Shown in pieces: positions 19,072 through 39,700 of a DNA stretch of 64,000 nucleotides (position 1 is its first letter; every line of letters begins with the position of its first letter). Under the pieces are notes generated by a model that was given only the letters and a program-made list of their open reading frames with translations, was not told the DNA's origin and searched no databases. The position numbers were made by a program, and so were the translations under genes. The DNA is from a virus. Its lineage: Duplodnaviria; Caudoviricetes. The stretch lies in the IMG/VR virus record IMGVR_UViG_3300029955_000001, one strand, 5' to 3'.

Positions 19072-19190
19072 AGTTTTGAAATCCTTTTAAAGTAAGTTAC
19101 ACATAGAAGAGATGCATACCGGTTATTTTTAACCAGTATTTGTTTACTACAGAGTAATTCTGTTCTTATTTATTACACTGCTCACCTTAG

Positions 19191-19218
19191 TGATATATGT
19201 GTTTATTTTTTTAGAATG
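19191..19218 (-). promoter_or_regulatory. Putative early promoter
   Basis: Minus strand CATTCTAAAAAAATAAACACATATATCA shares the ACATATAT core with 810-836 and 1157-1183; directly after a terminator. Confidence 0.4.
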
Positions 19219-19257
19219 CGGCATAGAGGCTGAGTATTACCCCAGCCTCTGCTTTTT
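19219..19257 (-). terminator. Terminator of the vRNAP-protease operon, with TATGCCG tail
   Basis: AGAGGCTG-N10-CAGCCTCT stem 19225-19250; CGGCATA 19219-19225. Confidence 0.7.
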
Positions 19258-20029
19258 ACCATTCCGTGTAAGCAGCTTTTTTAGTAGTATCGAAACTATC
19301 TAAGGCAGACCACCCTAAACTAGCATATAACTCATCCGCACTCAAATGAGTAGACTCACGAGAAAAACCAGGAAGTGATTGTTCTTTAAAACTGCGCTCT
19401 ATAACGCCACGAGAAAAACTCATATCAAGAAGATTCTCAAGGGCAGGAGATTTCCATTTCTCAGCCACACTAATGCCTGGTTCGTTTACATGATCGAATG
19501 TTACAATGTTTCGAAGTGCTCGTTTATAAACACCATTTTGACGGAAGTCATCAGTGAATGCTCGAATAGAAAAACATATGTTCTCATTTGGGTTAGCTAG
19601 TTCTTTTTCAAGGACATACCCTAATTCACCAGAAGGACATACTTCGCTAATAATAGCAATGACCGGTTTACCATTAGCATCTTTAATGTTGTTGTAATCA
19701 AGCGTAATCGATGCGTGATGACAGCAAATTCTATTCTCGACAATTGTCATGACACGATTCGCAAACGACTCTACAGACTGATTAGGGTCCATCCTAGGGT
19801 GTCCGTTTTCGCCTCGCAGTGACCCGCGCGCTACACGTCGTTGAAACTGACTAGAACTTTCAAATAAATCTTTGGCTTGTTCGTAGACATATAGTTGCCC
19901 AGCCGAGTTGAATACATTTAAAGCACCAACTACCATCGGATAATAACCTTTGGCATTCTTTTTAAGCTCGCCTACTTTATTTACTCCAACTAGTGAAGTA
20001 CATGCAAATGTAACAGAATTTAAAGCCAT
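19256..20029 (-). CDS. Prohead (head maturation) protease, phiKZ gp175-like
   Basis: GENGHP (catalytic His), FSIR (catalytic Ser), VTFD..NEPGI..A.K..SPALE (putative self-cleavage site). Confidence 0.88.
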   Translation of the reverse strand: MALNSVTFACTSLVGVNKVGELKKNAKGYYPMVVGALNVFNSAGQLYVYEQAKDLFESSSQFQRRVARGSLRGENGHPRMDPNQSVESFANRVMTIVENRICCHHASITLDYNNIKDANGKPVIAIISEVCPSGELGYVLEKELANPNENICFSIRAFTDDFRQNGVYKRALRNIVTFDHVNEPGISVAEKWKSPALENLLDMSFSRGVIERSFKEQSLPGFSRESTHLSADELYASLGWSALDSFDTTKKAAYTEW

Positions 20030-20061
20030 GGTATTTTCCTTAAACTATATATTTACTTCCA

Positions 20062-20787
20062 TCACCTTCGAATAATGGATTCGATTCTTTCCACTCTTTC
20101 GGTCGGGTTCACAAGAGAAGAAACCAACCCTTCATCAAAATAACTACCAAGTAATTTATTGGTAGTGTTAGTAGCCGCATATTGAACACTGCGTAAGCCA
20201 ATAAACGCAGGAGGATTAGTTTCTAATTCATCAAGAGTTTGAACAGAATGACGATAATACTCATGACGATTTTCAGAGTTACGAGAAATCATTGAAGCAA
20301 TTAATTCCATCACCTCGTGTGTTTCCCCGATACCAGCGCCAGCATGTTTCTTTGCAGTATCTAATAGCAACCCAAGTTCTCGATAGCCAACATACCACGG
20401 CACATGGCCTTTAGATGCAATTTCATCAAATATTTTGTAAACTAATATATCTGTTTTAACGAGATCGATTGAAGAAAATACAGTACTACCTGGCTCAAAA
20501 TAAAACTCGTAACATTCATCTTCATTAAACGTTACCTTCATTGTAGAAGTAGGTTCTATGCGAATCATTGCGTTAACAAGAGACACACCGTAATACTTGT
20601 CTTCGCAAGTAATCGCATAGATACCAACAATGTGTGTTTCAATGCCAATTGTGGCTAAGCCTCTTTCAGCAAATCGACTAGGTATATAAATCTTTACAGC
20701 ACGTTTAGCGCGCACAGACCTATCTTCTAAAACTTCTAAACAAGCATGTACCTTATCTGCATCACGAATAAGTTCTTTGGGATTCAT
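20062..20787 (-). CDS. Conserved virion protein (phiKZ gp176-like)
   Basis: 241 aa; position between gp177-like gene and protease. Confidence 0.6.
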   Translation of the reverse strand: MNPKELIRDADKVHACLEVLEDRSVRAKRAVKIYIPSRFAERGLATIGIETHIVGIYAITCEDKYYGVSLVNAMIRIEPTSTMKVTFNEDECYEFYFEPGSTVFSSIDLVKTDILVYKIFDEIASKGHVPWYVGYRELGLLLDTAKKHAGAGIGETHEVMELIASMISRNSENRHEYYRHSVQTLDELETNPPAFIGLRSVQYAATNTTNKLLGSYFDEGLVSSLVNPTERVERIESIIRR

Positions 20788-20801
20788 ATACCTACCTTAA
20801 G

Positions 20802-22277
20802 TTATTTGAGTACTGTAACACGAAACTGTGTGCTGACCCAATACGCTATATATTCTAACACACTAACAGCAGCAGCTTCACGCACGTCAATTGTTGGATT
20901 TTCTTTCTTAATTCGTTCAATACCAGAAAGAATACGTTCCGCATCTGTGTGAAAGAAACGTGCATTACAAACGAGTCTTAAACACAAATCCCACAGGTCA
21001 TCTAATTCGCTTTCACGAGCAGCCTCTAACATTTTAGAAAAACGTCTTACAATGTTATCTCTGCTATCTGGCAAAGGTTCTTTTACTTCATCCAGGTCAC
21101 GTAGTTGACGATCAAACTCTTTTGTAAGAATGTGCTTCGTTCTAGTGAAACGACGATTGCTTTCTGTTACAGAAGTAATAGACGAATGGCGCGCCCATAA
21201 CGTTTTCAGTTCGATAGCTTTATCATTGATTGAAGAAACAGTACAAACTGGAACCCCGGTTAACGTGTTGCCAAACAAGATTTCGTTTTCACCACCGTCC
21301 TGAATCCATTTACTATATACGTCGCTATTGACAATTGTTTTAGTTCCTTGTACAGATTTAACAAGAATTTTATTCTTTGAAGAACTATCATGATCGTCAA
21401 TAGCACGACATAACCGAGAACCGGCTTGATTGCGATATTCGACAATCAAATTATTAAATGCATTTAGGCCCATTGTTGTTTCTGGCAAAGGCTTATCAGC
21501 TAATGCGTTAGCTAATAGATAGATAGCTAATGCATTATCAACGCCTTCAGCAGGACACTCTGTAAATGTGTTAAAACGAAGTTGTTGTTTCTCACTTAAC
21601 TCCGCTTGTTTAATTTGGAACACATGAGTCCAAATACGAATGAAGAAACTATCTCCTTTTACAGATGCCCATTCATCAATCGCGTCATTAAGATTCTTAG
21701 TTCCTGTCTTCATCAGCTTCAACATTTCTTCCACTGTAATGAGCGGTAACTTCATTGCTAGCGGTGGTGTGTTGAATGGTTCTTCTTCAAAACGACGTAC
21801 TGATTTTTCTAGTGCACTGTTTAACAACGGAGCAGGAGGAGAGTAAGTGATTACCTCCATACCCAATAAAGAAGATGGCGTAGTCAGACTTAACTCACGA
21901 TGAACTCGTGATACCAGATCAGCAACAGCCGGAGCAACTACCGTTTTTGCAAACAAGATATATCGCTTAACAGCTTCTGTAACTAACAGTGTTGTATTGT
22001 CCAATACTTCGTCATGAGCAGATGTTCCAAATGCTTCATTCTTAGCATTGGCCATGTATGTAATCATCTTAACATTAGGACTGCCCACACCTTCTACTTT
22101 TACGCCAGGTACACCAGACGTTTTTTCTGTACTAGAAAAAGCAATACGCGCATCAGAACGAGTCGCTTTCACTAGCGTGTCCAGTGGTGTGCCTTCAATT
22201 GGAGTAAGAACTATGTTGTGTTCATCCAAAATCTGAGTGAGAGTTAACGCACTATCAAGAGCTTCTACGTTCAACAT
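20802..22277 (-). CDS. Conserved virion protein (phiKZ gp177-like)
   Basis: 491 aa; synteny downstream of vRNAP beta. Confidence 0.6.
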   Translation of the reverse strand: MLNVEALDSALTLTQILDEHNIVLTPIEGTPLDTLVKATRSDARIAFSSTEKTSGVPGVKVEGVGSPNVKMITYMANAKNEAFGTSAHDEVLDNTTLLVTEAVKRYILFAKTVVAPAVADLVSRVHRELSLTTPSSLLGMEVITYSPPAPLLNSALEKSVRRFEEEPFNTPPLAMKLPLITVEEMLKLMKTGTKNLNDAIDEWASVKGDSFFIRIWTHVFQIKQAELSEKQQLRFNTFTECPAEGVDNALAIYLLANALADKPLPETTMGLNAFNNLIVEYRNQAGSRLCRAIDDHDSSSKNKILVKSVQGTKTIVNSDVYSKWIQDGGENEILFGNTLTGVPVCTVSSINDKAIELKTLWARHSSITSVTESNRRFTRTKHILTKEFDRQLRDLDEVKEPLPDSRDNIVRRFSKMLEAARESELDDLWDLCLRLVCNARFFHTDAERILSGIERIKKENPTIDVREAAAVSVLEYIAYWVSTQFRVTVLK

Positions 22278-22278
22278 A

Positions 22279-22482
22279 TTAAATTTCTCCCAAATAAGGC
22301 GTTACTTTTCGTTGAAAACAAGTTTGTGCTAGGTTGTAAATAATAGAACGGGATAACGGAGATCCGTTTAAAGTGTCCGCTACTTCGTTACCCAATACAC
22401 CCTGCGCCACGCTAGCTACTAACTCATTAGCGTTAGCTAGTGTTACTAAAGTTCTTTCTGAATCTTGATTATTTAAACCCAT
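22279..22482 (-). CDS. Small hypothetical protein
   Basis: 67 aa; AGGA RBS; tightly packed in the operon. Confidence 0.6.
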   Translation of the reverse strand: MGLNNQDSERTLVTLANANELVASVAQGVLGNEVADTLNGSPLSRSIIYNLAQTCFQRKVTPYLGEI

Positions 22483-22517
22483 GATGTTTTCCTATGAAAA
22501 TAACTATTACGTCGCAT

Positions 22518-22730
22518 TTAATTTTGACCTTTGTATATCTTACACGCCTTAGCGCTAATGACGTTAAGTAAAGTGCATGTTGTTCCAATAATATCTGGAC
22601 TACACACAATACGATTTTGTATACTGAGAGCACCGAATATGGCATCTATTTTAACACCGGATTCGGTAGTGATGTCGTCATTCAGAATTGTGCCAAAAAC
22701 TGTTTTCATTTGATTACAGAACACGCCTTT
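22518..22730 (-). CDS. rpoB: vRNAP beta subunit (phiKZ gp178-like), exon 4 of 4
   Basis: Begins AAA GGC GTG (KGVFCNQMK) right after the intron terminal G at 22731; splicing restores GD-KGVFCNQMK, equivalent to bacterial GDK-x7-K. Confidence 0.88.
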   Translation of the reverse strand, partial: KGVFCNQMKTVFGTILNDDITTESGVKIDAIFGALSIQNRIVCSPDIIGTTCTLLNVISAKACKIYKGQN

Positions 22731-23083
22731 CCTTTTGTCCAATTAGTTCGTTAGACTAACCCGGTGTGCACTGACACCCGCCTACATTTTCATGTAGGAG
22801 CAGATCATATCTTCATCCTCTATTTCTAGTTAGGATGTTTCCCATTTCTGTCCACTTGGACTCTACACCGTGGTAAGCGGTTGATCGTTGAACCTTTTCC
22901 ATTTTACAGGAACTTGGCTGCTAAAGAGGATCTTAGATCCTACGGTTGCCCATTGTAATATCCGTTTCGTTTTTAGACCATGGCTTTGTCTTTCGACTCG
23001 CAGTGGTGAAACAGCTTTAGGGGGTTCCAGCAGTTAGAGAAAATTCATTTGAACATTACTAATCAAATGGACTATATTTTTTA
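22731..23083 (-). mobile_element. Group I intron beta-I3, ORF-less, 353 nt
   Basis: 5' exon ends in U (GGTGAT); P AACTGCTGGAA, Q CAGCCAAG, R GTTCAACGATCA, S GAAGATATGATC; P9 with GAAA loop; ends AAAAGG. Confidence 0.9.
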
Positions 23084-23998
23084 ATCACCTACACCAGCAG
23101 GAACTTCACCTGTGATGTATACTTTAATTGCTAACGTATCTAACGATAACGGATCACCTTCGATTCTAAAACCTTCATCTACGGAACCAGTATAGGCTGT
23201 TTTACCAGCCGCTCGATTACGCTTAGAGAATTCACGATCGTAAGTAGTTACAATACTACGCAATGAATCCGACATGTCTTCAATCATTCCGTTGTAAAAT
23301 ACCTCAATCCGTTCTATTTTACCAATCGTTTTAGCTTGTGGTGTTTGAGCACTTAATATACGTAATGTATCTAATGATTCTTCATCAAAGAGACCTGATT
23401 CAGCTGTAATAGCATCTTCGATTACACATAAAATACTCTCAGATTCCACCTTATCACCAGGTTTGACTAACCGACGTATACTTTGATCAAAATTAACAAC
23501 AATGTATTTTACCTTTGTTGTTGACGTAGATAACAACTTAGCTGCTCTTCTAGAAATAGCAGAGGAATCGTCTAGTGTGGCGTTTGATTCCATTAGCGCC
23601 GTCTTTACCATAATGCCAGATTTCCAAACAACATCGTTTGGATTGAAAAGATCTTTTTCAAAGAAACCTGTATTATAACAAATAAGCTCACTTGTTTTAA
23701 ATACCTGACCAGGGATCATATCTGTTTTCACAGAATGAGGGATCACTAAACCAGCAGCATTACCAAAACGTCTACCTAATTCATATCCAGTTGGTTTTTC
23801 ATCTCCGTCATATTGAACAATAATACCGTGTTCTGAAACAGAAATTACTTTACCAGGTTTCTTTGCGGTCATAGCAAACAGATCGCTTGTCCTGTGAGGT
23901 AACACTTGCTCGTAACCAGTACGAATTTGCGGTTGCGCATAACCTATACAAGACACGACGTGACTAGCTTGAACCGATGCAAAATTTACCCGTTTGGG
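23084..23998 (-). CDS. rpoB: vRNAP beta subunit, exon 3 of 4
   Basis: Begins CCC AAA CGG (PKRVNFASVQASH), in frame with track ORF 23081..23956; ends GVGD. Confidence 0.88.
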
Positions 23999-25434
23999 CC
24001 TTTTGTCCAGTGAGGTCGCTTTACTCTCCTCACCCGGTGTGTTAAGACACCCGCCTACACTTTCATGTAGGAGCAGACTATATCTTCATCCTCTTAGAAT
24101 AAGTAGGATGTCTTCTATTTCCCCAGGGCTTCCTAGGTACTGGCTGATAAGGCCATAGTCGTTGAACGTTCCTCGTATCGTTTCCGATCATTAGAGGCTT
24201 CGCTGCGGATTACCCAATCTTTATCTTTGTTACCGTACCCAGGTAATTATTCTGGCCGCTAGTCAGTTTCCTATACTAGTTTGGTAGATAAAGCTCTAAG
24301 GGACTTCCCGCCAATTAAAAAGAATTTCATTGAATATTACTATTCAATGAGACCTAGATTGTTTATTAAAATTAATACGGATAATATCCGTACCTATAAC
24401 CATCAGAAAAAACTTTTTCACCATTCGATTTAAGACGATAATTAAGTGCAGTTGTTGTCAACCTGTGCCACTTCGCGCACTCTACAGCGGAAGGATATAT
24501 TTTAAACTCACCATTTTCATTATTTACTACTTTTACGCACCGACTACATGAAAAATTATTTAACTCCAAATATGGATCAATAACTTCTCTCCATGGTGTT
24601 AAGTCATGCGCCCAGCGTATTTGAATAAAATTTGGTAAGACAGGTTGATCTTCGCGACGTATCCATTGAGAAAGCGTCGGTAACGCAATGTCCAAGTCTT
24701 TAGCTAACTCACTCATTTGGTTATATGTTGCTATTTCACCAGTAAGTACGTTACGAACACTAATCGCTTTGGAAGTGCTATTCTGCAAAAGAGCTTGCTC
24801 AACTGAAATAGGAATTATCCATGGTTCATTAGAGTGTGATCCGCGATACTGTTTTCGCTCAGGAAACACTCTTTCTTCACCAACAAAGATACGATAATTA
24901 ATTGCATCTTTCGACATACCCATAAAACGAGCACACTCAATAATACTTGGAAATTTTCTAATATTCCCAGTATCTATATCTCTAACCGAAATAGGAATAC
25001 ATTTTGGTGTAATTCCCATTGCACCAGCATGTTCCGCATTTCCTTGATAAGTAGTCCATTCTAAATTATCTAACCAATCATCACCTTTAACGGTGTTAAT
25101 GTGATTGACAACAAGTGAGGTTATGTCTACGCCGGGATGTTTAAAAACATAACACAGTAAACGATGTCTTCCCCATGTTAGGGTATAGTTATCATCACCA
25201 AATATCCGGTAATTTACATAGCCATCAGGATTTCTACTACCTTCCAAATTAATGCGTGTAGTTTTATTGATTACTCGACCATCAATAGAAATTACATAGT
25301 TCGAGTATCCTGGTATTTCATAATAACCAGGAAAATCAATACTTTCTTTTAATTCATGGTTATACATTTAACACTCCTTAATATTCAACATATTATAGTG
25401 TGTTAATTTTATTTTAATTCAAAACAATCTGTTA
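23999..25434 (-). mobile_element. Group I intron beta-I2, 1436 nt, with HNH ORF
   Basis: P AATTGGCGGGAAG, Q AATCCGCAGC, R GTTCAACGACTA, S GAAGATATAGTC; terminal G 23999; splicing joins DRDD to PKR. Confidence 0.9.
24372..25367 (-). CDS. Intron-encoded HNH homing endonuclease (NUMOD4-HNH with C-terminal NUMOD1/IENR1-like repeats)
   Basis: IPGYSNYVIS..GRV; RHRL; VNHINTVKGDD.LDNLEWTT..GN..HA; SIIECARFMG and SAVECAKWH repeats; AAGGAG RBS. Confidence 0.88.
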   Translation of the reverse strand: MYNHELKESIDFPGYYEIPGYSNYVISIDGRVINKTTRINLEGSRNPDGYVNYRIFGDDNYTLTWGRHRLLCYVFKHPGVDITSLVVNHINTVKGDDWLDNLEWTTYQGNAEHAGAMGITPKCIPISVRDIDTGNIRKFPSIIECARFMGMSKDAINYRIFVGEERVFPERKQYRGSHSNEPWIIPISVEQALLQNSTSKAISVRNVLTGEIATYNQMSELAKDLDIALPTLSQWIRREDQPVLPNFIQIRWAHDLTPWREVIDPYLELNNFSCSRCVKVVNNENGEFKIYPSAVECAKWHRLTTTALNYRLKSNGEKVFSDGYRYGYYPY

Positions 25435-27078
25435 ATCATCTCTATCTGAAGCTGGTGAAAGTAAAGCTGTGGTGGATATTAACGCAGTAGCTCCAGTTTC
25501 CCCAATCTTGTATCGGCGAGACATTCCACGTAATGAAGTGAACTGTGGGTCAGCTGATAAGTACGTATTAACCGCTACGTCCTTACTATCCGAAGTAGCT
25601 TCAGATATTGTACCCATATCGTTAGCGTGATAGATACGTGCGTTCTTAGTCATACTGCGACTATTACGACCACCAGTACCAGCAAATGTTACTGCTTCCA
25701 TTTCTTTCAGATTCTGAACTGGATTTATATCACTAACTAATGCTACGGATGGATCTTGCATAATGTTTTTCCATACAGCATAGGGATTCAAATCAATTGG
25801 TACTTTTGATTTTCCTATACGACCATTATGTCCACGAATAGCCCTTACAATTTCACCATAGACAGCCCCCGCCATACGCTCGTAACCTTTAATACGCATG
25901 TACTGCGAATCAAGTTCATCAGGATGTTTATCATTTAACAACATCTGACAGCTACGAATTAATAGATCTCTGAAATTTAACGGCTCTTTCATTTCTATTA
26001 ACAAATCACGTGTAATGGGATCAATATACATCTGGTATAACAAATCAATTTCACGAACATAACGAGCGCTAGCGCCGTTGTTCTCTAAGACATTTAAATA
26101 AATACCACGTTTGTCGAATTCGTGAACACTATACTGACGAATAACTTTATGGTATTCATTAAAACCAGCCAGTATCATGGATGCTTCTTTATTGTCTTTT
26201 TGGAACACTAAAGTCTCATCACTAAATACAATAGGATATTCATTTGGCATTAAGTTAACACGAGTCCCCGCAGGTACTCTACGTGGGTTTACTTTCAATA
26301 ACTTAATTAGTCTATCCAAACCAATTTCATACCCAAGAATAATACCAATTGGAATGGTGCGACCTAACACCTTTGCCTCAGCAAAATCAATTGGTTCTTT
26401 ATCTATATCAAGGCCGAGCAATTCCTCAATCGTGCCGAATGGTTGAAGAATACCGTCTGCTGTGATGTAGATAAAATCATTCTTATCTAGAACTAATAAC
26501 GCATCGCTTTCTCGTTGAACGCCATCTGAATTAACAGCGTGCCCAATAATGATTGATCCATCTTTTTCATAGATCGCTATTGATTCTCTGCCGTAAAGAG
26601 CTTCGCGTCTCGTGTGATCAAACTGTAAAGCAAATGTATACGTGTAGGCTTCATCGACGCGAATTTGCTGTGGATCAAATGCTACTTTCTGCTTAGGAAC
26701 AGCATTATTTTGAGACATCACAGACTGATGTTTTATTTCAGCCCATTTACTGATATCTTCTTCTGGCTCTTTTTCTTTAAAGGCAATGTTACTTGGCGTT
26801 GGTCGTTTTACATCTGGACGTTCGGCTGTTAATGTAAAACCACGGAACCCTAGCGCTAACGTGCTGTAAAGTTTAGGACAATCAAACAAATTATCAAACA
26901 CTGTACCAGGGTGCATACTTGTTACTGAGTCATCTGTTGGATCTAGTCCTTTAGCGACAATCTGATTGCGAAGCCATGTACCAGAGTCATTAACGCGTTT
27001 CTCGCTACGACTAACAAACACTGTACCGTAGTAACTAGTAAGCTTTACCGTATCTGGCGATGTCTTACGAATTGGAAG
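25435..27078 (-). CDS. rpoB: vRNAP beta subunit, exon 2 of 4
   Basis: Begins CTT CCA ATT CGT AAG (LPIRK); contains GTGGR, GTISEATSDSKDVAVN; the first 39 aa of the track ORF are intronic. Confidence 0.88.
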
Positions 27079-28399
27079 CATTCCAATTAAATGGACCATA
27101 TCATCATCCTCAACATTACTTGTTAGGATGCCTACCATTTCGGGACTATTAATCCCTACTCTACTTGCTTTAATTACTAAATTAATAGCAACCATCTGAT
27201 TTTACACAGATGTTATTATGCGATGATTTGCAATAGCTTTCGATGGCCTCTGAACACACTCCGTATATTAAAATAAATACTTAGGAGCTTCGTTGCGGAT
27301 TATGTCTTTTAATAACGTTTTTACTATTCTCAACACTTCCATTACTGGGTTGAGTATTACAGTGTGTTTCCACCTGTAAGTAGTAGTTATTAAAATTATA
27401 GACGTTTTCCCGCAGTTAGATAGGTTTTGTTGTACCGTATTACTACGATACGGGGACCGGTAAATGAACGTACAAAAATAAATTAAATTTAGAATAAGAC
27501 GTGGAAATTATTAATATTTTTTTCCAGTTCTTTTACAATGTCTTTAACGAGGACACCACTTGGGAGCTTAAACGTATCGTAAACTTCAAGGGCATTTCTA
27601 AAGACTTGTAATTTTCCATCAACAACAAACCAATAACGATAAATTTGTTTAAGTCTCATTACCAGTTCTTTTTCTACAGAATCACTTTTGAGATGTAGAT
27701 AAGTTAAAACGATTAAATACTCTTTTCGAGCTTTAATAAAAAGCTTTTTTAATTCATCGTTTTCTTTTGTTCTCAAATAAACTTCTTCGCCACCAAAAAT
27801 ATCGATAGGCCTATAATGTTGCAAACCATTAAATTCGATATGAATGTTTAACTTAGGTAAAAAGAAATCACTTCTTAGGAGAGATGGTGATAATCTAAAT
27901 TCTCTAATATGTTCAATATTAAAGTTTTTTAAACATAACTCGACAGCTTTCTCACCTTTTGATTCCATACAAATACGACAACCGGCTTTATTCGAAAGAT
28001 GACCGTTTGGTTTCTGCCAAAACGATCCATGCGTAGGACAAATTATTTCTACATGTTCTTTATTGCCGTTATACTTAACCTTACTATAATCGTATTTATT
28101 ACCATGAATTAACTTAGCGTCTTTTATAAATTCTTCTGTAGTTTTCTTATGTTCTTCTATAAAACATTTTTTACACCCACACCCAGCTAAATGTGAACAC
28201 GCTTTCTGATAAAATAACCCGTGTCTTAGACACGTAATAGTTAACTTATCATGAGCTAGAAATATTTCTGGTAGAAGATCATAGTTGTTTGTTTATAAAA
28301 CGGATGGTCTTTTATTTCTTAATTTATTTAAAAATGTTTCTTTGTTCATTGTAGCCTTTTTATCATACAGTAATAAAACCTATATAACAATGGCTTTCA
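27079..28399 (-). mobile_element. Group I intron beta-I1, 1321 nt, with a disrupted endonuclease ORF
   Basis: Guide sequence GTCCCCG (27457-27451) pairs with exon end TGGGGAT via U-G; P AACTGCGGGAAA, Q AATCCGCAAC, R GTTCAGAGGCCA, S GATGATATGGTC; terminal G 27079. Confidence 0.9.
27489..28349 (-). pseudogene. Intron-encoded endonuclease (two Zn-finger repeats + PD-(D/E)XK/Vsr-like domain) with premature TAA at codon 19
   Basis: ATG 28349 is in frame with track ORF 27489..27968 (286 codons plus stop); TAA at 28295-28293; C-x2-H...H...C-x2-C repeats; SDFFLP...IEFNGLQHY nuclease motif. Confidence 0.75.
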
Positions 28400-30205
28400 A
28401 TCCCCACGTTGTTTACGTAAAGAGTACTTGATACCATTCACCGAATAAGTACCGTCTTCTTTTATTACGGGTAACTTAAACTCCATCGTAGATGTTGTCC
28501 CGTCTACCGGAGTAATTCTAACCTTATGTTTGTCATACGAACCTAAAACACTATCTTCACGTTCTACCTCATAGCCCGTTACTGCGATCCCGGCCTTCTG
28601 AACATTCATCACCATACCAGCCACATCTCGAGGCATGATATCAGTAACGTAGAGACGATCAAAATCATGTAAACTCGATTTCAACATACTCTTATCATGG
28701 ATAGTTTGTTTGTCGGCAATCGTAGTTACTGATTCGATAGCTAGTTGTTTTGGCTTAATATCAATAAACTTATCTAACGTCGTCTTGCCATCTGGCGAAA
28801 CGATTGTTCTATAAGACTTTGATAACGTTTCATAACGTCGATACTCTGCAGCTGATAAACGACCAATATCTGCTAAACGATCACACACCTTCATTACACC
28901 ATCTTCTAGTGTTACAGGTTCATCAATAATGATATCTTCATGATGGCTCGTTGTGCTGTCGTTATGCGATCCGACATGTGCTCTAGAAATAGCTTCTAGT
29001 TCTGCTAAGTCCTCATCTAACCGAGCATCTAATTCTGCACTATGCGTTATATCGGCACCAGTATCGTCAGCGTGATCAGAATGTAGTGGATCGTAAGTTA
29101 CTTCACTAGGTGGCGGGTTCTCTGTTTGCTTCAATTCTACAGCACCTGTAGCGCTGTTAATAACAGGTAATGATGTTGCTTGTGTAATAACAGGCGAAGC
29201 ATTAGGGGCTGTTTGTACAGATACGCTATTATCGGAAGAATCAGTAGCGGTAACCGTAATATCAGATTTAATATCAACAGGAGTATTTTCTTTATCCCGC
29301 TGAACTTCATCTGTAACATCCGGCGAAGCAACAGTGCGCGCGTGAAACAAAGCCATCATCAAACGTAAGAAACGTTTCTGAATTTGAGACGGCGTTAAGC
29401 CCTTTATATTTGCTTCTGGATCTTCTTCCAATTCTTCTTCAGTAGCAATGCGCCATGAATTTAATTTACCCAGGTTAATGGCAAACCAGCGATTAGATTC
29501 AATAAATATTAAATTAACCTTATTCATTTCACCATCAGGCACGTGTGATAAAACAGAAGTTTTTCTATTATCACCTAACCATTTATAAATCTCTAAAATC
29601 ATTAAGCTATCAGGATTATTAAAGATCTTTACGACATGTTGCGATATACCAGATGATCCTAACCGAAGATCTGGTAAACTAGGTAATACAGTAGGCAATC
29701 TACAAGTAATGAAATTTTCTCTATCAGAAGTCGCCGTTACTACCGCTATATTTTTCCACACAGCTGATTGTGTATTCCACCATTTATAATACTCACTATA
29801 AAACGAACGTGGGTAACGATACATTTCTTGAAGAAATCCGTAATTATAAATAACTAGTGTATTCGGATCACGAGTGCTTATTTCAAGTGTTTTCATAAAA
29901 CGAAAACGACGATTTTTACTATGGAAATGTCTTATTAGCCCCATTGGATTAATAGCGTGCCTTCTTGGCATTCCCTTCTCATCTCCTAATTCAGTAATAT
30001 GACCAACGTTAATTGGTTTTGAAATATTACGAAACAAGAAGTCGTCAGGATCGGGGCCCATCACTATTGGGCTAGTTGATACATAGTGTAAAATAGATCT
30101 CTTTGGTAAATCTAACAGATCCATTTTTGGACATGGTGGATTCATCAAGTGCTCTGCTATTCTTACGCCATATTTTCTATACCAAATGTCATAAAAAAGA
30201 TTCAT
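28400..30205 (-). CDS. rpoB: vRNAP beta subunit (phiKZ gp178-like), exon 1 of 4; spliced product about 1525 aa
   Basis: 602 codons ending LRKQRGD at the intron 5' splice site; exons of 602+548+305+70 aa join in frame. Confidence 0.88.
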
Positions 30206-30210
30206 TTTAA

Positions 30211-30379
30211 TTATCCATCTGTTAGATTATAAAGAACAAAAGCAACTGTTGCTACGTCTATGCTGGAAGTAAACCTACCATCTGTTCCAACATAAGCTCT
30301 CTTTTTAGTAAGGTACTCGTCTACTTCTTTAACTGCTTCGTCAGAGTACGTTGCGTTACTGCTGACAGTATCGCCATCA
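30211..30379 (-). CDS. rpoC: vRNAP beta-prime subunit (phiKZ gp180-like), exon 2 of 2; absent from the ORF track
   Basis: T + GAT GGC GAT ACT... = (F)DGDTVSSNATYSDEAVKEVDEYLTKKRAYVGTDGRFTSSIDVATVAFVLYNLTDG*; completes ADFDGD. Confidence 0.9.
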
Positions 30380-32168
30380 CTTACATATTACTTATATTCA
30401 TAGTAATATGTTACTTTACATCACTGTAAAGAATAGACTATATCTTTATCTTTTACTTTCATTGTAAGAAAGCAGTCAGATATCTCCCGTTTCGACGGAT
30501 CTCCCGATCGGTCTACTTCCTTGCGGAATAGTCGTTGAGCCTTATCCATGCCCTTGTGAGGTTTAGGATCTTGGTTGCTATAGGGATTCTTAGAATCCAC
30601 GGTTGCCTCACAGTTTATTAATAAAACAATATTAATAAAAGCAGTACTGAACGCGATTAACTTTCAGTATAATGTAATATTCTTAAGCATTCACGCTCTG
30701 GTTTTCACCACACGTTGTAGCTATTACACTTTAGAGGGTTTCCAGCAATTAAAGAGATTTATTTTCATAGGCATTTCGGCCTAAGGACTCTGATTGATAT
30801 TAAATTCTTTTTACTAAATATTGGTTTTTTATAAGTGACTTATTACTAATAGCGTGCATAATCATTCCATTTCCTCTATTAAGAAAAACAGATGCTTTTG
30901 CATAACTTGTAAATAATTGTTCAGTATTTGTTTTTGTATCAGTGACTATTACACCAGTTGTTTTTCCAACCGGATTAGCTAAGTATACAGTTATTTCATT
31001 TTCTGTATACACAGGCCATGGCGTTTCATCATTTTCCATTTTAAAATCATAACCTTTTAATGGTCGGTGATTTCTTTCATCTTTTAAATAAGAATGTATA
31101 GTCATAACTGCGCAGTTTGTTGCTCTGCTGCAATCAGCCACACTGGAATATGTATTTATAACGCCAGTTACAATATTGCGTGTTTTAACTGAAGTAGGTA
31201 CTCCAATATGAAGTTTACGATCAATTGTTTTTTCTTGGTCAGTAACTTCTCGCCACGACGTCGCGTCTGTTTTAAGTTTGAATTGTAAAAATCCAGGATA
31301 CACTGGTTGATTTTTAGCTTTTACACGATACTTAATTGTATCTTTGTTTAAGTTTAAATAATCTGCGCAGTCTACGTATCCTCTAAATTCTTTTACTTCA
31401 CCAGTAACAACATTACGCATTAGAACTGTGGAGTCTATATTTTGTAGACCATTTTTCCATGCGTGAATGTTATTGTCTTTTCTTGTGGACCATTCTAAAT
31501 TTTCTAATCTATCATCACCGGGTATTCCGTTAATGTGGTTTGTTACAAGTGAATCAACATTAACGGTGTAAGGAAGCCATGCAAGACAAATTAATCTATG
31601 TCTTCCTATTGATGTATCGTTACCAACATCTGGAGTGATTTTATATCTAGCATACCCTGTATCGAAAAAATATTTCAATACTCTACCACTGGTCGCGTTA
31701 ATAAGATTGCCAAATTTATTAATAGCGTAATTACTAAAGCCTGGTATGTATGCGTAATCTGAAAATTTATAATGAAGCATTCCGCCTTCTGGGAATTTCC
31801 ACACTAGGTTACTTGGGTGACAGTTCTTTTTATTACCATCGACAAACATTACATCTATTCGGTGCCAGTGATGAAAAGGAACTGCAATTCTTTTAAAAGT
31901 TAATGCAACTAATACTGCAACTTTATAGTTTTGATACCCGTTCCACAAACACGCATAAACTAATAAATTTCCATCAGCATCTACGGTGTGGGGAATAATA
32001 CTGTTGTCACTTCCTTTTACCTCTCCCTGGTAATTAATGGAGTAAGCATTACTGGTAATAGGAATTCTAAAAAAACCTTCTACTTCGATATATTTTTCGA
32101 ACATGTTATTTACTTATGTTGTATCTACATAGTATACATATTAGAAAAGAATTTAATAATTTTACTTA
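30380..32168 (-). mobile_element. Group I intron in the beta-prime catalytic motif, 1789 nt, with tandem-HNH ORF
   Basis: Guide GAGTC (30790-30786) pairs with exon GACTT; adjacent ATCA pairs with 3' exon TGAT (P10); P AATTGCTGGAAA, Q AGCAACCAAG, R GCTCAACGACTA, S AAAGATATAGTC; terminal G 30380. Confidence 0.92.
30800..32104 (-). CDS. Intron-encoded HNH homing endonuclease with duplicated (degenerate + intact) HNH modules
   Basis: First module DVMFVDGNKKNCHPSNLVW; second VTNHINGIPGDDRLENLEWST..DN..HA; C-terminal SVADCSRA-type repeats. Confidence 0.88.
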   Translation of the reverse strand: MFEKYIEVEGFFRIPITSNAYSINYQGEVKGSDNSIIPHTVDADGNLLVYACLWNGYQNYKVAVLVALTFKRIAVPFHHWHRIDVMFVDGNKKNCHPSNLVWKFPEGGMLHYKFSDYAYIPGFSNYAINKFGNLINATSGRVLKYFFDTGYARYKITPDVGNDTSIGRHRLICLAWLPYTVNVDSLVTNHINGIPGDDRLENLEWSTRKDNNIHAWKNGLQNIDSTVLMRNVVTGEVKEFRGYVDCADYLNLNKDTIKYRVKAKNQPVYPGFLQFKLKTDATSWREVTDQEKTIDRKLHIGVPTSVKTRNIVTGVINTYSSVADCSRATNCAVMTIHSYLKDERNHRPLKGYDFKMENDETPWPVYTENEITVYLANPVGKTTGVIVTDTKTNTEQLFTSYAKASVFLNRGNGMIMHAISNKSLIKNQYLVKRI

Positions 32169-33625
32169 AAGTCAGCTCCTAGTCGTGATAATTTAGCACT
32201 GTGTGGAATTGTACTATTTACAAACGCACCATCTTTAATAGGGAACTCATAAGCAGTGTGTTCAGCATCCATTGGTTCCCACTGATCATTCAGTTCTGAC
32301 CGTACTTCTGATACTGTTGTTGTCTTTACAAAAGCTTTGCTAGGGTAAATACTACCAACACCAGTAACAGGATAACGTGTAATGAATATTGGAAATTTAT
32401 TCAACTCAGTATAACAAGATAAATAAAGTAGTTCACAGAACGTCAATGGATGTACATCATCTTTATTTCTTTCCAATGGCAATTCGTCTATATCTTGAAT
32501 TAGCTTGAAAGTGTTATCGGGTCCTTTATAAATAAGACCAAGATAGTGCCCTTCGATAATAATTGGTTTATGCCTGATAGCTTCTTCTGAGAAACTTGTA
32601 AGGACTTTTTCTATTCCTTCATCTGTCATCCATTTATCGAAGTATTGTGGTTTTAAAGCTACTTCCTCACAATGTAAAGTATTAACATTGACCAGCTTAG
32701 CTGGCGCTCCTACTTCTGTGAATACTTTAGATAAGAACCCATGTCGAATATGATATCGTGCTACAGGCATAATAGATTTTAATAACTGATACAACCCAAC
32801 GATTGTGTTATTAAAACCTACAGTACCTGGCGCGCCTAAATAAGATACACTGGTATCCATTCCTGTAATGACATTACGTGTACCGTTCATCAAACCACGG
32901 GTTGCCCATTTACCTAGTAAGAGTTTATTCTTACCTTCTAACATGGCTTTGATAGTATTGTAAATTTCGTTAAAAGTTAGTTGTAAGTTATACCGTGCTC
33001 TGTCTAGCATTTCGGCATTGGTCTTTACAGCACTTTCAGAAATTGTATTTGCTATTGTTAGTAGCTGTCGGTAAAGTTTATTGATTTCATCTTCACGTGG
33101 GCGGCCATCTGGGCCTATTTCTACATCTCGATAACCAGCAGGCATAACCAGTACTTTTGGCGTTAAAGCAACTTTCTTATATTTATTTATCATGAGAATG
33201 CTTTGTTCGCGTAACGGACTGCCGGTTTGCTCAAACTCTATATTTTCCCAATGTTCAAGGAAGAAATTGAATCCTGTTTTACCAACTAGATTATTAGATC
33301 TTTCAAAATTCTTTAGTTCTTCATTCCAGGTAACATACTCTGTACCGTTAATAATACCACCATACAAGCGTTTAAGCTTAACAACTGCTTCGTAGATTAT
33401 TGGATGAAAAATAGGTATCTTAATATCGATAAAAGAGAAACGAAATAACCGTCTGTCATCTCCTTCTTTACCAAAAATAAGTGTAGAAAACAAACCATCT
33501 GGGTTGAATAAATTACTAGAGCCATCAAAGATATCTAGCTTAGTAACAGGTCGCATATTTTGGAGTTTATTGGGTGTAAGCTCCAAAAGAGTTATGTTAA
33601 AAGGTATATCAGAACGTTGTGCCAT
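32169..33625 (-). CDS. rpoC: vRNAP beta-prime subunit (phiKZ gp180-like), exon 1 of 2; spliced product about 541 aa
   Basis: FNPDGLFS..IFG, PAGYRD, GTRNVIT, ITRYP motifs; ends LGADF. Confidence 0.9.
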
Positions 33626-33708
33626 TAGGCTTCCTTTCTGTAATTAAAACAGATTACGCTAAAAGTATGAATAGTGACACTTAAAGCTTAACTCATTTGA
33701 GGTAATAC

Positions 33709-36700
33709 ATGGCTAATAAAACAAAGTTCGAATTAGACCAATTTGGATTCGATTCATCGTTAGATATTTCTAATCTTGATTTTAGCAAAGCACCTAAGAT
33801 TAAAAATGATCGATCGCCAACAACACATACTGCTATAGGAGTTGCGAAAGGTATAAAAAAGTCCGTTATTACTTCGGCTTTTATTACCAATGCAATTAAA
33901 GCTGCTCTTCCAAAAGGATATGGTACGGCAGCAGATTTTGTTGGAAAGTCCACAAGTGGCATTAAGAATCTATACAATGATACTGCTCGGGATATTAAAC
34001 CACTAATTAACGATATAAAACGGACAACAGATAAAGTTGTCACGGCAGCAGATTCGGCAATTCCAAAAAACATTGCTGAGAAAATAAAGAAATGGACAAA
34101 GATTGAACAGAGCGCGTATCGCAGTATGTCGCCGGAAGAACAACGCGATGCAGCTTTGCGCATGCAGCTAGGTGAGATTTTTAACTTACAAACGCAAACA
34201 ACATTAAAACAATCTGCCAGAGATACAGCTAGAGAAAACATTAAAACTGGACTAGAACATAGTAGACATAAAGATCAAATGTCGCAGCTGGACGCTATGC
34301 GGATTAGTCTTCAGCAGATAGCAAATTATCAGCAAAAAATAGATTCTGGTTTTCAGCGTAAATCTTTGGAACTACAGTTCCGCCATTACTACGTTGCAAA
34401 AGACACGTTAGAAGAAATGCGTGTTTTTAATACAAACGCAATGCTTCAGTATCAGACTATTGCAAAGAATACAGGCTTACCTGATTTTGTAAAGTTAAAG
34501 ACATCTGAACGCCTTAAAGAAGTTTTACGCAATAACTTTATTAACGCCGCTAGCGCTAAGATTGATGCAAAACGTAAAGCATTTTTTAAAGACTTTACTG
34601 ATAGTTTATTACGCCAAGCTAAAGGTAAGCTATCGGGCTTTAGCAACGGCGCTAGAGAAGGTATGGGATATGCTGATCACTTAGATCAAGCTGGTGGTAT
34701 GGCGAGTATGGCAGATAACCCGCATGAAGAACGTGGTGATATGGCAGGGACGTTTTTCGGAAGTTTATTATCTGGTTCACTAGGTACTTTTCTAGGTAAG
34801 AAAGCAAAACCACTAATAAATAAATATACTAAGGGGAAAGTTGGTAACAGCATTCATCGTGTTGGTCATAAGTTACAGTATTTTCACGACGATGCGCAAC
34901 AAGCCGCATTAGAAACAGCAAATAATTGGGACCCAAAGAAACATGGTAAAGTTCTAAATGCTGTTGCTAAGTTTCTTGGGGATGCTGTTAAGAACACAAC
35001 TATTTCATCTACGGGTTTAAAGAGCGATAATCTTAAAGACATGCAACAACCTGCTCCGTTTAGTAGGCAGATAGCAAAATCTATTACTGAAATTATCCCT
35101 GGTTATTTAGCACGCATGTTACGTGAAATGCAGATGACGCGTACAGGCAAACCATCTGAGCTTACGCATTATGATTTCACACGAAATAAATTTGTTGGGG
35201 AAACAACGCTTAGAAGAACTATTCATGAAAGCATTGTTAACAAGACCGCTGTTAAGGACATCAGAGCTAGCGCTGATAGAATAATTGATACTGTTGACAA
35301 GAATAAAAAATTATCACCAGAAGCACGTAAGCATATTGGTGAACAATTAGTTCGTAACAATATCATTAAGAATATATCGGGCACAAAACGTAATTTAACT
35401 GATGCTAAACATTTTCAAGGTAAAGCAGAGCCACATGCAGCTGCGTGGATTTCTGCTTATAACGAATATCTCGGTAACGATGAAGCTGGTCATAAAGAGA
35501 ATCATGTTCGTGAAATGTTTAGAGATGTCGGGCAACACATGGAAGATGTTCGTTCCACTGTTGAGGACTATGATACAGCTGGTTACGGTTCGCATCTTAG
35601 TAAAATGGGATTTACTAAGACCGGTGAAGACACAATCAGTGTTGCTACTCTTACGAAGAAAGAACGCGATCTTTTAATTAAGCTTGGTATTCTTTATAAG
35701 GATAGAAACTACATTAATGTTAGCGCTATTAATAGTGGTAATATTAAGTTGATTGAATCAATGGGTTTAAAAATACCTAGTGGCAACTATGTTAATTTGC
35801 AGGGAATTAGCGAGATGTACGCTAGTGGGTCTGGCGCAGATGAAGGTGATAGTGGTCCAGGTAGACGTCGTAGACGTTCTAGGGTTCCGTTTGGCCCTCG
35901 TAAACCACAAGGTCCTAGTGCTGGTTTACACGCTCCATCTTCTCATGCCGATCAGCAGTTTCAGCATAATACGCAACAACGCAATATGCAATCGAAATTC
36001 GATCATGAAACTCGAGAAGCTATGCGTCATCAAGGTAAACCGTTTGCACACCAGACTGGTAACAATCCGCTAAATAGTCCGGTTTATGAACATCATTTAA
36101 AGTTAGCAAAGGAACGTGCTAAGCAAATATCGAAAGAAAACGCGCAAGGACATTCTAACGCATCAAGGTTTGAAGCTTTCAAGAACTTTGGTAAGCGTAA
36201 GATGGCTGATTTGCATTCTTTTGCGGAACATCACCAAATTAATAATCGTGCACACGCCGCTGTTGGTGGGGTAAGGAATACCCTTGAAGACATGCTTCAT
36301 TTTGGAACGCATAAGGCATCAGAAGCTAAGACGATGTTTCACGGTGCTGTACATGAGGCACATGCTAAAGCAACAGCTTTTAAGGACTCAGTTAAAGAAG
36401 CAGATTTAAAGAATAAAGCTGCATCTCATACTGGCATGGCTAAAAATACTGCTTCAGGGTTGTTTGAAGCGGCGCATGATAAAGCGGTTGGTTGGAAAGA
36501 CAGAATCAAAGCTAAAGCAAAAGAAACAGTAACCGCAACGAAACACGCTGTTGAAGAATTAAGTAAGCACGGTATGTTCAAAAAACATATTGGGATGGCA
36601 GATTTAATTCCTGGTAAGAAAGGTAAGCCAGTATCTGCTTTAGCGTCAATCGATGCTACTCTAAAACGTATTGAGAAGAAACTTAAAGACGGCATTGGCA

Positions 36701-39700
36701 CAGGCGGTGGCACTGGTAAAGTAAAAGGTACGCACTGGTGGAATAAATCTGTGTTAGGTGCGGCCGGCGACCTAGGTATGGGCGCTGTACATCTTGCCGG
36801 ACATGCTGCTCATATGGCAAATAGTGTTGTTGGTGGTGCTTTTTCTAATGCTTGGAAAATTGGTAAGTTTGGTGTTAGTGCAACAGCTAACACACTTGGC
36901 TGGGGTAAAGACAAGCTAATGAACTTACGAGATGTCTGGGTAAAAGGAGAAGACAAACCACGTTTACTTGCTTCTAAATTAAGAAACGGTTATTACGTCG
37001 ATCAAAAGACAAGAAAACCTGTTAGAAAGTTTAAGGATATTACTGGCACGTTACTGGATGAAAACGGCGATATTGCTTTGTACGATTATGAAATACCTAG
37101 AGCTTATTTGAAAGGTAAGCTAGGAGCTGTTTTACTATCTTCTGTTGGTGCTGTATTCAAAGGTGTAAATAGTTTGGTTAACGCTTACACTGGTGTGATT
37201 GGCACTGCTGTTAAAGCAGGTATATGGACAGGTAAGAAATTATTTAGTTTAACAAAACGTCCACAAGACGTTTATTCCAGAGACGATCTTACTACGCCTA
37301 AATTAACAGCAAGAACAATGCGAGCAGGCGGTTATGTCTCAGCCGTCACTGGTAAAGTTATTAATCATCCTGGTGATATTGACGGCCCTGTAAACATGGT
37401 AGTAAATGGCAAAGTAGAGCAAGCAATGTCTGCTGCTGAGGTAGCTAGTGGTGTACTGGATAGGAATGGCAAACCAATTAAAACTGGTATTAGAAAACTA
37501 CTTGGCATAGCTGGCAGTATTATTGGTTTTGCTGGACGTCAAGCTATGTCAATTGGTAGAAGCATCAACAAGACCATTGGTCATGCTGTTACTGCTGGTA
37601 AACATGTTGTTGGTTTTGCTAAAGATACATTATTGCACGGTATTACCGGTTGGGGTAAGGATCACACTGGAACTAGCATTGGTAAAAAGGGTGCTGATAT
37701 TGGCATTAAATTACTAACAGAAATTCGCAACATATTAAAATCTAGATTACCAGAATCTAAGAAGCATATTCTTGGTGATATAGATGGAAGTGGAATTCGT
37801 GAAGGTAGTTTTCAAGATGAAGTGCGTAAAGGTTTAGTCCCAGGAGAATCTTCATTAGATGCTTACGCTAAAGCACATCCTTCTAGTGGTGGTAAAGGCG
37901 GTGTCCTTGGAATGCTTGGCGGGTTATTTGGTAAGAAAGATAAGGGTGAAGGTGGCGATGGTAAGAAAGACGAGGAAGGTCACCCAGTTCGTGATATGGT
38001 AGAAGGTGAGTTAGTTGAACGTGGTATTGAGAAAGGTGCTGGTAAGTTTGGTCGTGCTTTAAAGTGGACCAAAAACTTAGCAAAGGGAGGGGCTAGTAAA
38101 GGTCTTAAACTTCTTTCAAAAATACCTGGTTTAAGTAAGTTCGCTAAACTCGCAGCGATGTTAGGCGGTACTGCTGAAGCTGCTAATTTAGCCGGTAGTG
38201 CTTTATCAAGCACTAGTGCCGCGCCTGGTGTAATGGAAGCCGGTGGGGTTGCCAGTAAAGCGGGAATATTATCTAGAGTAGCAGGGATTGGTAAAGCTGG
38301 TTTAGGCATGGCTAAAGGCGCAATGAGTGGTATAGGTGGATTAGCAGGTAAACTACTCATGCCGTTGACTGCTCTTATGTCAGCTGGTGAAGGAATTGCT
38401 GGCGAAGCTAATGGCCAAAGAATAGATAGTATTGGTAAGGTTATCCCAAAAGGCTGGGGTATGCTTAACCCGTTTGAGTGGGCGATGAATGGCGGTCGTT
38501 ATGCTGGCAATAAAATTAATTCTGGTTTAGATAGCATTACTGGTGGTCAGGGTATAGGTAGTAAAATTTACGACTGGACGCATGGTGATGAAGCTAAGAA
38601 ACTATCAACAGCATCTACACCTGAAGCAATTGCAGCTGCTAAAGCTAGGATAGAAAAAGCCAAGATAGATAGAGCTAAAACACAAGCGGAAGCTAATGCA
38701 GCAGGTAATAATGCTTCTGGTGTTCCATCTACATCGGACGCTAATCGTTCTGTGAATTCAGCAGAAGACTTAACAAACGATGAACGTGATAAACTGACTA
38801 CAATGACGCATGGTCAGAAACTTGCGTACATGGCTTCTAAGAACACTGCTAAAACACATAAAGCTGAATCAGGGATTAATCCAGGTCCTGGGCCGATGCC
38901 TGTGTCAGCCGCCGCTTTAGCAGCACTTGCTCCTCCTAAACCTAAACCATTAACACCTGAAGAAAAAGCAGCGGCTGATAAAGCAAAAGCAGATAAAACT
39001 GCTAAAGCTAAAGCTGCTGCTGTAGCTGCCGCTCCTAAAGAAGAAGGTTTCTGGAGTAGAGTAGGCAGTAGCATATCAGAAGGAGCCAGTACCGCTTACA
39101 ATGGTGCAATTAACGCAACGGGAGCAGGGATTGATGCTGTTGCTAATGCTGACTATTCTGTAAAAGGCATAGCTAACATGGGACACCATGCTGTTGCTGG
39201 CGCTAGTAATCTGTACAAAAGCGCTGTTAGTGCAACAGCATCAGGTATTGAGAACACAGTCAATACGGTGAAGTCTGGTGTATCTGCTGTTAAAAGCGCG
39301 TATAACTCTGCTGTAGATACTGCTGCTGATGCAATGATGGCCGTAGCTGGTGCCCCTAGAAAGGCAGCAGAGGCCGCTAGAGCAACGTATAACAAAGCGA
39401 TTGCTCTCGCATCAGATGGAATGCTTGCTCTTGCCACAGGCCCTTCTATCGTAGGTAAAGCTTATAACGCTGCGGTAGATAAAACAGCAGACGCTATGTT
39501 AGTTGCTTCAGGACTTCCATCAAAAGCTGCAAAAACTGCTAGAGAGGAATATAACAAAGCAATTGCTGCTGCTGGTAGCGCGTATGGTTTTGCAGTAAGT
39601 ACTGTGAAGAGTGGGATAGCGGCTGTTGGTAAGTCCGTTTCTGGTGTCGTAAATGATGCAAAAGCCGGATGGAATGAAGTAGATGAAAACGGTAATGAAG

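Follow-up and report, generated by a model that had tools for sequence, protein, structure and literature searches.

Group I introns in two genes for a virion RNA polymerase in an uncultured jumbo phage from soil, and evidence for their removal in RNA

We analyzed a 64,000-nt stretch of DNA from an uncultured virus of the Caudoviricetes (IMG/VR record IMGVR_UViG_3300029955_000001), hereafter called the window. Metagenomes from peat and permafrost contain the stretch, as do seven metatranscriptome runs from peat. Between positions 22518 and 33625, the listing of open reading frames (ORFs) contains a minus-strand series that is broken by gaps and by endonuclease-like ORFs. We are highly confident that this series represents two adjacent genes of a phiKZ-type virion RNA polymerase which have been invaded by four mobile, self-splicing group I introns, and that these introns are removed in RNA. 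All features are compiled in Table 1, with introns and their insertion sites numbered in the order of transcription.

A search against Rfam, with its curated thresholds applied, returned exactly four matches to RF00028. All of them lie on the minus strand, and they were the only Rfam matches above threshold in the 64-kb window. All four span the full model (positions 1-253), their scores being 92.5, 56.6, 55.0, and 51.9 bits where the gathering score is 50 bits, and the conserved letters of P4, P6, P7, and J8/7 are visible in the Rfam alignments (e.g., AAUUGCGGGAA, AAUCCGCAGC, GUUCAACGACUA, and AAGAUAUAGUC). In all four introns, the preceding 5' exon ends in U, the intron itself ends in G, and a stop codon is located 0 to 2 codons inside the intron. 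Their summed length is 4899 nt. P9 extensions come after the Rfam core of intron 3. The Rfam model runs 11 nt past the real 3' end of intron 2, because a perfect 8-bp hairpin that straddles this 3' splice site (27098-27060; AAUUGGAA, loop UGC, UUCCAAUU) was taken for P9. The hairpin might sequester or present the splice site.

The six exons join into two frames free of internal stops, one of 1626 nt (541 aa plus stop) and the other of 4578 nt (1525 aa plus stop). The joins were then compared with uninterrupted homologues from cultured jumbo phages, namely FLC9 (gp41/gp40), Xoo-sp14, Eowyn, and RSF1 as well as the beta gene of RTH11. All four proved gap-free and read GADF/DGD, RGD/LPIRK, DRDD/PKR, and GVGD/KGVF. 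For evidence at the RNA level, the contigs of three RNA runs (X10, X12, and X13) and one DNA run (X7) were compared with positions 19000-34500. The ligated joint of intron 4, connecting 22730 with 23084, occurred in X10 (220 nt on the shorter side) and in X13 (255 nt). That of intron 2 (27078 to 28400) was present in X10 (102 nt), that of intron 3 (23998 to 25435) in X13 (43 nt), and that of intron 1 (30378/9 to 32168/9) in X10 and X13 (29 and 72 nt). The intron-1 joint is ambiguous by one letter, and the terminal-G rule settles on exon ends 30379 and 32169. None of the four ligated joints was found in the DNA run X7, whose contigs run across the intron-exon boundaries. Unspliced and spliced forms were both present in the RNA runs. 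The initial annotation of this DNA had proposed four group I introns, six exons coding for proteins of 541 and 1525 aa, approximately 4.9 kb of intron sequence, the U and G ends, a stop within two codons of each junction, and in-frame joins that restore conserved motifs. All of these claims held, the spliced RNA that it called for was found at every junction, and its exon coordinates turned out to be exact to the base according to both the homologue alignments and the RNA joints.

Table 1. Positions of exons, introns, guide sequences, intron ORFs, and downstream genes in the window
Feature	Positions	Strand	Remarks
Beta-prime N-terminal subunit, exon 1	32169..33625	-	phrog_2986, E 6e-185; codes for ...GADF at its 3' end, contributing TT to the Phe codon
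Intron 1	30380..32168	-	1789 nt; splits catalytic motif ADF/DGD; Rfam core 30811-30414, 51.9 bits
Intron-1 ORF	32104-30800	-	434 aa; Pfam HNH_3 E 5.8e-11, NUMOD1 E 3.7e-9
Intron-1 guide	30790-30786	-	GAGUC; pairs with exon GACUU, 5 bp; ~1.4 kb from 5' splice site
Beta-prime N-terminal subunit, exon 2	30211..30379	-	T of Phe, then DGDTVSS..., stop; from homologue alignment and RNA joint
Beta, exon 1	28400..30205	-	602 aa, ends ...RGD; phrog_3148 positions 2-574
Intron 2	27079..28399	-	1321 nt; Rfam core 27477-27068, 55.0 bits; joint RGD/LPIRK
Intron-2 ORF	28349-27489	-	286 codons; in-frame TAA at codon 19 (28295-28293); endonuclease-like
Intron-2 guide	27457-27451	-	GUCCCCG; pairs with exon UGGGGAU, 7 bp; ~0.9 kb from 5' splice site
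Beta, exon 2	25435..27078	-	548 aa, LPIRK...DRDD; phrog_3148
Intron 3	23999..25434	-	1436 nt; after conserved Asp-Asp; Rfam core 24380-24054, 92.5 bits
Intron-3 ORF	25367-24372	-	331 aa, HNH; NUMOD1 E 1.8e-6
Intron-3 guide	24353-24351	-	GUC; pairs with exon GAU, 3 bp; ~1.1 kb from 5' splice site
Beta, exon 3	23084..23998	-	305 aa, PKR...GVGD; phrog_3148 positions 1065-1354
Intron 4	22731..23083	-	353 nt, no ORF; splits GD/K; Rfam core 23096-22781, 56.6 bits
Intron-4 guide	23072-23070	-	GUC; pairs with exon GAU, 3 bp; local
Beta, exon 4	22518..22730	-	70 aa plus stop; phrog_3148 positions 1355-1423
Downstream ORF	22482-22279	-	67 aa; co-directional
Downstream ORF	22277-20802	-	491 aa; phrog_3841
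Downstream ORF	20787-20062	-	241 aa; co-directional
Prohead protease	20029-19256	-	Peptidase_S80, E 1.6e-70; beyond the 67-, 491-, and 241-aa ORFs

The identity of the two genes was examined at the protein level. Pfam detected an RNA polymerase domain in none of the exons because the family is too divergent, and the subunit assignment therefore draws on PHROGs, profiles, and catalytic motifs. The pieces of the 1525-aa protein map in order on the single, 1424-position phrog_3148 profile, with E values up to 9e-179. When family profiles were compared with solved structures, that of the 541-aa protein matched the beta-prime N-terminal subunit of AR9 (7s00_d, E 5e-10), followed by bacterial beta-prime, and that of the 1525-aa protein matched residues 537-656 of Thermus beta (E 3e-6). 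Searches of the PDB with single exon sequences gave no match, and beta-prime and beta were reached only by the homologue-built profiles. Together with the motifs ADFDGD and GDK, these matches identify the 541-aa protein as only the N-terminal part of a split beta-prime and the 1525-aa protein as beta. The initial annotation, which had named the two products beta-prime and beta, was right about the subunits and missed the split. Its designation as a virion RNA polymerase agrees with the PhiPA3 record, which annotates its homologues of the beta-prime N-terminal subunit and of beta as similar to phiKZ gp180 and gp178, respectively. In the phiKZ system, gp178 is the virion-packaged beta subunit (PMC11620839). 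Judged from this annotation, the homology to PhiPA3, and synteny with the prohead protease, the enzyme is assigned to the phiKZ type. The gene order from the polymerase pair to the Peptidase_S80 protease is kept in every relative examined.

Exon-guide pairings and closing helices were read from the sequence. The U-G wobble feature of P1 is strong in introns 1 and 2 and weak in introns 3 and 4, both of which have a 3-bp exon pairing plus a helix on the intron side. Long-range helices close the P1 loops of intron 1 (14 nt, 32158-32145 with 30811-30798) and intron 3 (6 nt, 25430-25425 with 24361-24356). In introns 1-3, the endonuclease ORF lies inside the P1 loop, since it is situated between the 5' splice site and the guide. 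The predicted 434-aa and 331-aa ORFs both combine an HNH motif with NUMOD repeats within an intron, as in the I-HmuI/gp210 type; the HNH_3 match of the 331-aa ORF (E 0.003) falls short of the Pfam cut-off. From end to end, this intron-3 ORF shares 50% identity with gp210 of phage PhiPA3 (E 5e-108), with the catalytic His (equivalent to H82 of gp210) conserved, and the enzymes of introns 3 and 1 are 31% identical to each other. The intron-2 ORF belongs to a different endonuclease family (phrog_559, E 5e-40; phrog_9084, "homing endonuclease") and gave no match to Pfam HNH. Its premature TAA indicates that this gene is probably decaying.

The RNA runs also contained two circle-type joints. In intron 3, the joint connects 24356/7 with 23998/9 and encloses 359 nt (X13, contig depth 166), and in intron 1 it connects 30801/2 with 30379/80 and encloses 423 nt (X10 and X13). 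In both, the terminal G is joined to a position that directly follows a U and precedes the guide by 4 to 12 nt. Such joints would be products of group I circularization. The joints themselves were seen in RNA, and we infer the mechanism from known group I circularization. The intron-1 circle joint coincides with the UAA stop of the HNH ORF (30802-30800), and the released 5' fragment would therefore hold the ORF without a stop codon. Contig depth was highest over the intron-3 core (bin 23653-24686) in all three RNA runs, at 25-68 versus ~2-37 in exon bins, and was flat (~6) across the DNA run X7, contig depth being a poor measure. The peak over the intron-3 core fits a stable excised or circular intron RNA. 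One X10 contig (960 nt, depth 61.5) contains the intron-3 core and continues beyond the terminal G (23999) into at least 255 nt foreign to the stretch. A 30-nt consensus of this loose end was absent from the 64-kb window and from JGI metagenome contigs; the loose end could stem from a second copy of the intron in another gene or another phage, or from an assembly chimera.

Several observations count against splicing of all four introns as described here. The RNA support consists of assembled contigs instead of raw reads, and splicing efficiency is not derivable from them. The exon junction of intron 3 comes from a single contig of low depth, whose shorter side measures 43 nt, and run X12 yielded unspliced contigs only. 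The exon-guide pairing of introns 3 and 4 amounts to merely 3 bp (GAU/GUC). For intron 3, a 5' splice site three bases upstream would offer a 5-bp pairing (GAGAU/GUCUC) that is better on paper, yet this register would lose one invariant Asp and is contradicted by the homologues and by the RNA joint between 23998 and 25435. It was rejected.

Interruptions of the polymerase gene pair were counted with tblastn and Rfam in related phages, some of them designated here by L numbers (L012 and L013 are uncultured relatives from Logan assemblies). FLC9, Xoo-sp14, Eowyn, RSF1, and L007 have none. RTH11, L006, L008, L009, and PhiPA3 have one each, at site 1 or site 3, and two were found in L010 (sites 2 and 3), L011 (sites 3 and 4), and EL (sites 1 and 3). 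L012 has three Rfam cores (sites 1, 3, and 4), and L013 has four, two of them within the beta-prime interruption and the others at sites 3 and 4. All four sites of the window recur among the relatives, and all four are filled at once only in the window, within this small sample. The intron density, described as exceptional in the initial annotation, was therefore overstated, given relatives with two, three, and (in L013) four cores in the same gene pair. The window is a dense but not unique case of a known kind of mobile element, its four introns standing at the top of a small sample.

Even the best protein matches are at most 68% identical. Among the 120 best homologues of the beta-prime N-terminal subunit, 12 are 483-494 aa long, the length expected if site 1 is interrupted. 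With beta exon 2 as the query, approximately 30 protein clusters of ~480-550 aa span the whole query, which indicates that sites 2 and 3 are both interrupted; with beta exon 3, about one quarter of the matches measure 280-320 aa, indicating interruption at both sites 3 and 4. In blastn comparisons, cores that share a site matched one another best. The site-2 core is shared with L010 (395 bits between the cores), and the site-2 intron is not present in L012 or L013. The collected site-3 introns are all inserted after GATGAT and before CCNAARCG. The intron-4 core is closest to the site-3 introns of relatives, which suggests that intron 4 may derive from the site-3 lineage.

Individual relatives showed further peculiarities. 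Besides an HNH ORF, the beta-prime interruption of L013 (L013:2964-5124) harbors two Rfam cores (2968-3264 and 4761-5068). Codons for Asp-Gly-Asp between these cores (~3315-3330) suggest a micro-exon inside the catalytic motif; no consistent U...G boundaries were found for it between the two beta-prime cores. In RTH11 (L002:4862-7030), ...TAD at site 1 is immediately followed by an unannotated group I core (68.9 bits), and the ORFs lie downstream of this core, as opposed to the ORF-before-core arrangement in the window. EL is interrupted at L015:7634-9581 and 12786-13242, corresponding to sites 1 and 3. The published records of RTH11 and EL list the polymerase pieces as separate genes.

The closest precedent is the gp210 intron of PhiPA3, which resides at the Asp-Asp site of the virion RNA polymerase beta gene gp211/209 and encodes a characterized nicking endonuclease (Birkholz et al., Science 2024; PMC11620839). 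Intron 3 of the window interrupts the same gene (the homologue of phiKZ gp178), is likewise inserted right after GAT GAT, and also has its HNH ORF upstream of the ribozyme core. PhiPA3 has no further intron in the gene pair, whereas the window contains another three, at ADF/DGD, RGD/LP, and GD/K. The window also differs in host and in habitat (peat or permafrost metagenomes), and the beta proteins are only 28-43% identical across aligned blocks. The cultured Pseudomonas phage EL (gp184 to gp187) resembles the window in that beta-prime is interrupted near DFDGD, by HNH gp185 and then an Rfam core, and beta at Asp-Asp. Unlike the window, EL has two interruptions and one core at the Rfam threshold. 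L012 and L013 share the gene order of the window.

Multi-intron phage genes are known from other lineages, as in Twort orf142 with three introns and in T4 (td/nrdB/sunY). An endonuclease ORF upstream of the core is found in the Physarum PpLSU3 (I-PpoI) intron, the excised form of which circularizes internally and thereby parts the ORF from the core. Unlike the introns of the window, PpLSU3 lies in nuclear rDNA and encodes an enzyme of the His-Cys box type, and we take the likeness as a lead only. As in Jug and crAss-like phages, the window carries predicted self-splicing group I introns, often with HNH ORFs, at conserved sites of essential genes. Jug phages have a mean of 18.5 group I introns per genome, and their splicing was shown with metatranscriptomes (PMC12880540). 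Unlike in the Jug, crAss-like, Twort, and T4 cases, which belong to other lineages, the introns of the window target catalytic motifs in a multisubunit RNA polymerase predicted to be packaged in the virion.

According to the explanation we favor, four mobile introns have inserted at codons of conserved motifs (ADF/DGD, RGD/LP, DD/PKR, and GD/K). The primary transcript carries a stop at each intron until the ribozymes excise themselves and the exons are ligated exactly into the 541-aa and 1525-aa frames, as seen in RNA. In introns 1-3, the P1 loop, which measures 0.9 to 1.4 kb and is closed by a long-range helix, contains a homing-endonuclease gene. Once introns 1 and 3 are excised, their terminal G would attack just upstream of the guide and release a circular core of ~360 to 420 nt. 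In co-infecting relatives, the endonucleases would cut or nick alleles that lack the intron, and repair of the break would draw on the intron-bearing copy; we infer such persistence by homing from gp210 and I-HmuI. Introns 2 and 4 look like later stages of the homing cycle because the intron-2 ORF is prematurely stopped and intron 4 has no ORF. The patchy, combinatorial occupancy, the endonucleases in varied decay, and the site-wise kinship of the cores fit selfish homing on conserved catalytic codons. If the phage benefits at all, it would most likely do so by interfering with competitors in the manner of gp210 and not by regulating its own assembly. Such interference is plausible for intron 3 and perhaps for intron 1.

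An extension of this explanation assigns an adaptive role to the introns. Stacked endonuclease introns would be kept as each disables the intron-less polymerase allele of a co-infecting relative, in the way PhiPA3 gp210 acts on phiKZ, with an advantage at several loci. We consider this possible but doubtful. The intron-3 ORF is a full-length gp210 homologue at the same site, and relatives with and without each intron come from the same sample, L006 and L009 both originating from SRR29660192. However, at most two sites would be armed, given the premature stop in the intron-2 ORF and the ORF-less intron 4, and in the PhiPA3 study, the enzyme acted on phiKZ only once it had been imported into the phiKZ nucleus (PMC11620839).

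The initial annotation had put forward a different role, in which four splicing events in one late transcript would gate the virion polymerase and time virion maturation. The stop at each junction, by which unspliced RNA cannot give full-length subunits, and the coexistence of unspliced and spliced forms in the RNA runs speak for such a checkpoint. The former is trivial, however, and the idea has no real support beyond it. On the other side, intron content ranges from zero to four in the 11 relatives compared that share the gene order: four lack introns, five have one to three, and four cores are reached in L013 alone. Relatives thus exist with the same operon and no introns at all. Owing to this variable content, a conserved regulatory role is unlikely, and the homing-endonuclease genes in three of the four introns point to mobile selfish elements. 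A refined form of the idea, which we regard as improbable, holds that the introns would be more than neutral passengers, that splicing in a ribosome-free phage nucleus would set the amount of late full-length virion polymerase, that circularization would part the endonuclease-coding piece from the core, and that the intron load would tie both the supply of polymerase and the expression of the endonucleases to the condition of the infected cell. The checkpoint as first proposed is slightly more improbable still. We give hardly any credence to the remaining alternative, by which no RNA splicing occurs, DNA variants lacking the introns or DNA carried over into the RNA libraries account for the joined forms, and the fragments are separate polypeptides: RNA libraries may contain DNA, and contigs drop rare variants, so that absence from one DNA run is not proof, but this account needs a variant of at least 99% identity that is intron-less at all four sites, would have the fragments cut the NADFDGD and GDK motifs, leaves an Rfam-grade ribozyme core in every gap, and is at odds with circle-type joints ending at the terminal G, which could not arise from DNA deletion variants.

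The downstream genes bear on the claim of the initial annotation that the transcript continues to the prohead protease, which was not borne out. One spliced contig extends from exon 3 to position 22179, inside the second downstream gene. This is suggestive only of a single transcript through to the protease, as the contig does not prove one molecule. Consensus scans for promoters and terminators gave results at chance (43 found versus 52 expected, and 9 versus 8.8) and were uninformative on the transcript. Upstream of the polymerase pair, a divergent 2633-aa ORF (33709-41610, plus strand) is located in the place of the giant protein that resembles phiKZ gp181. No Pfam match was obtained for this ORF at E 0.001, whereas its counterparts in relatives carry SLT or Glyco_hydro_19 domains.

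The nearest cultured relative is Burkholderia phage FLC9, with 61% identity in the beta-prime N-terminal subunit and 50% in beta. A megablast search of the region against the phage genome collection found no match, and hence no near-identical DNA there; a single-protein scan of IMG/VR found no relative. A 286-kb contig in the NCBI assembly "Paraburkholderia sp. BCC1886" encodes homologues that are 59-64% identical (proteins P0103 and P0255). This contig probably represents a jumbo phage that was assembled along with its host. In combination with the Burkholderia host of FLC9, it hints that the clade infects Burkholderiaceae.

These results provide direct in-situ RNA evidence, from an uncultured soil jumbo phage, for accurate group I splicing at all four junctions in virion polymerase genes, along with circular intron cores. 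For annotation, they matter where database genomes such as RTH11 and EL give the pieces as separate genes. The lineage of the PhiPA3 gp210 "intron weapon" at the Asp-Asp site extends far past Pseudomonas phages. The catalytic motifs of the virion polymerase are recurrent landing sites that are filled in many combinations, a natural system for multi-site homing and for competition among jumbo phages. The split RNA polymerase genes of jumbo phages have been proposed to have arisen by intron mobility (PMC7598289), and the introns described here bear on that origin.

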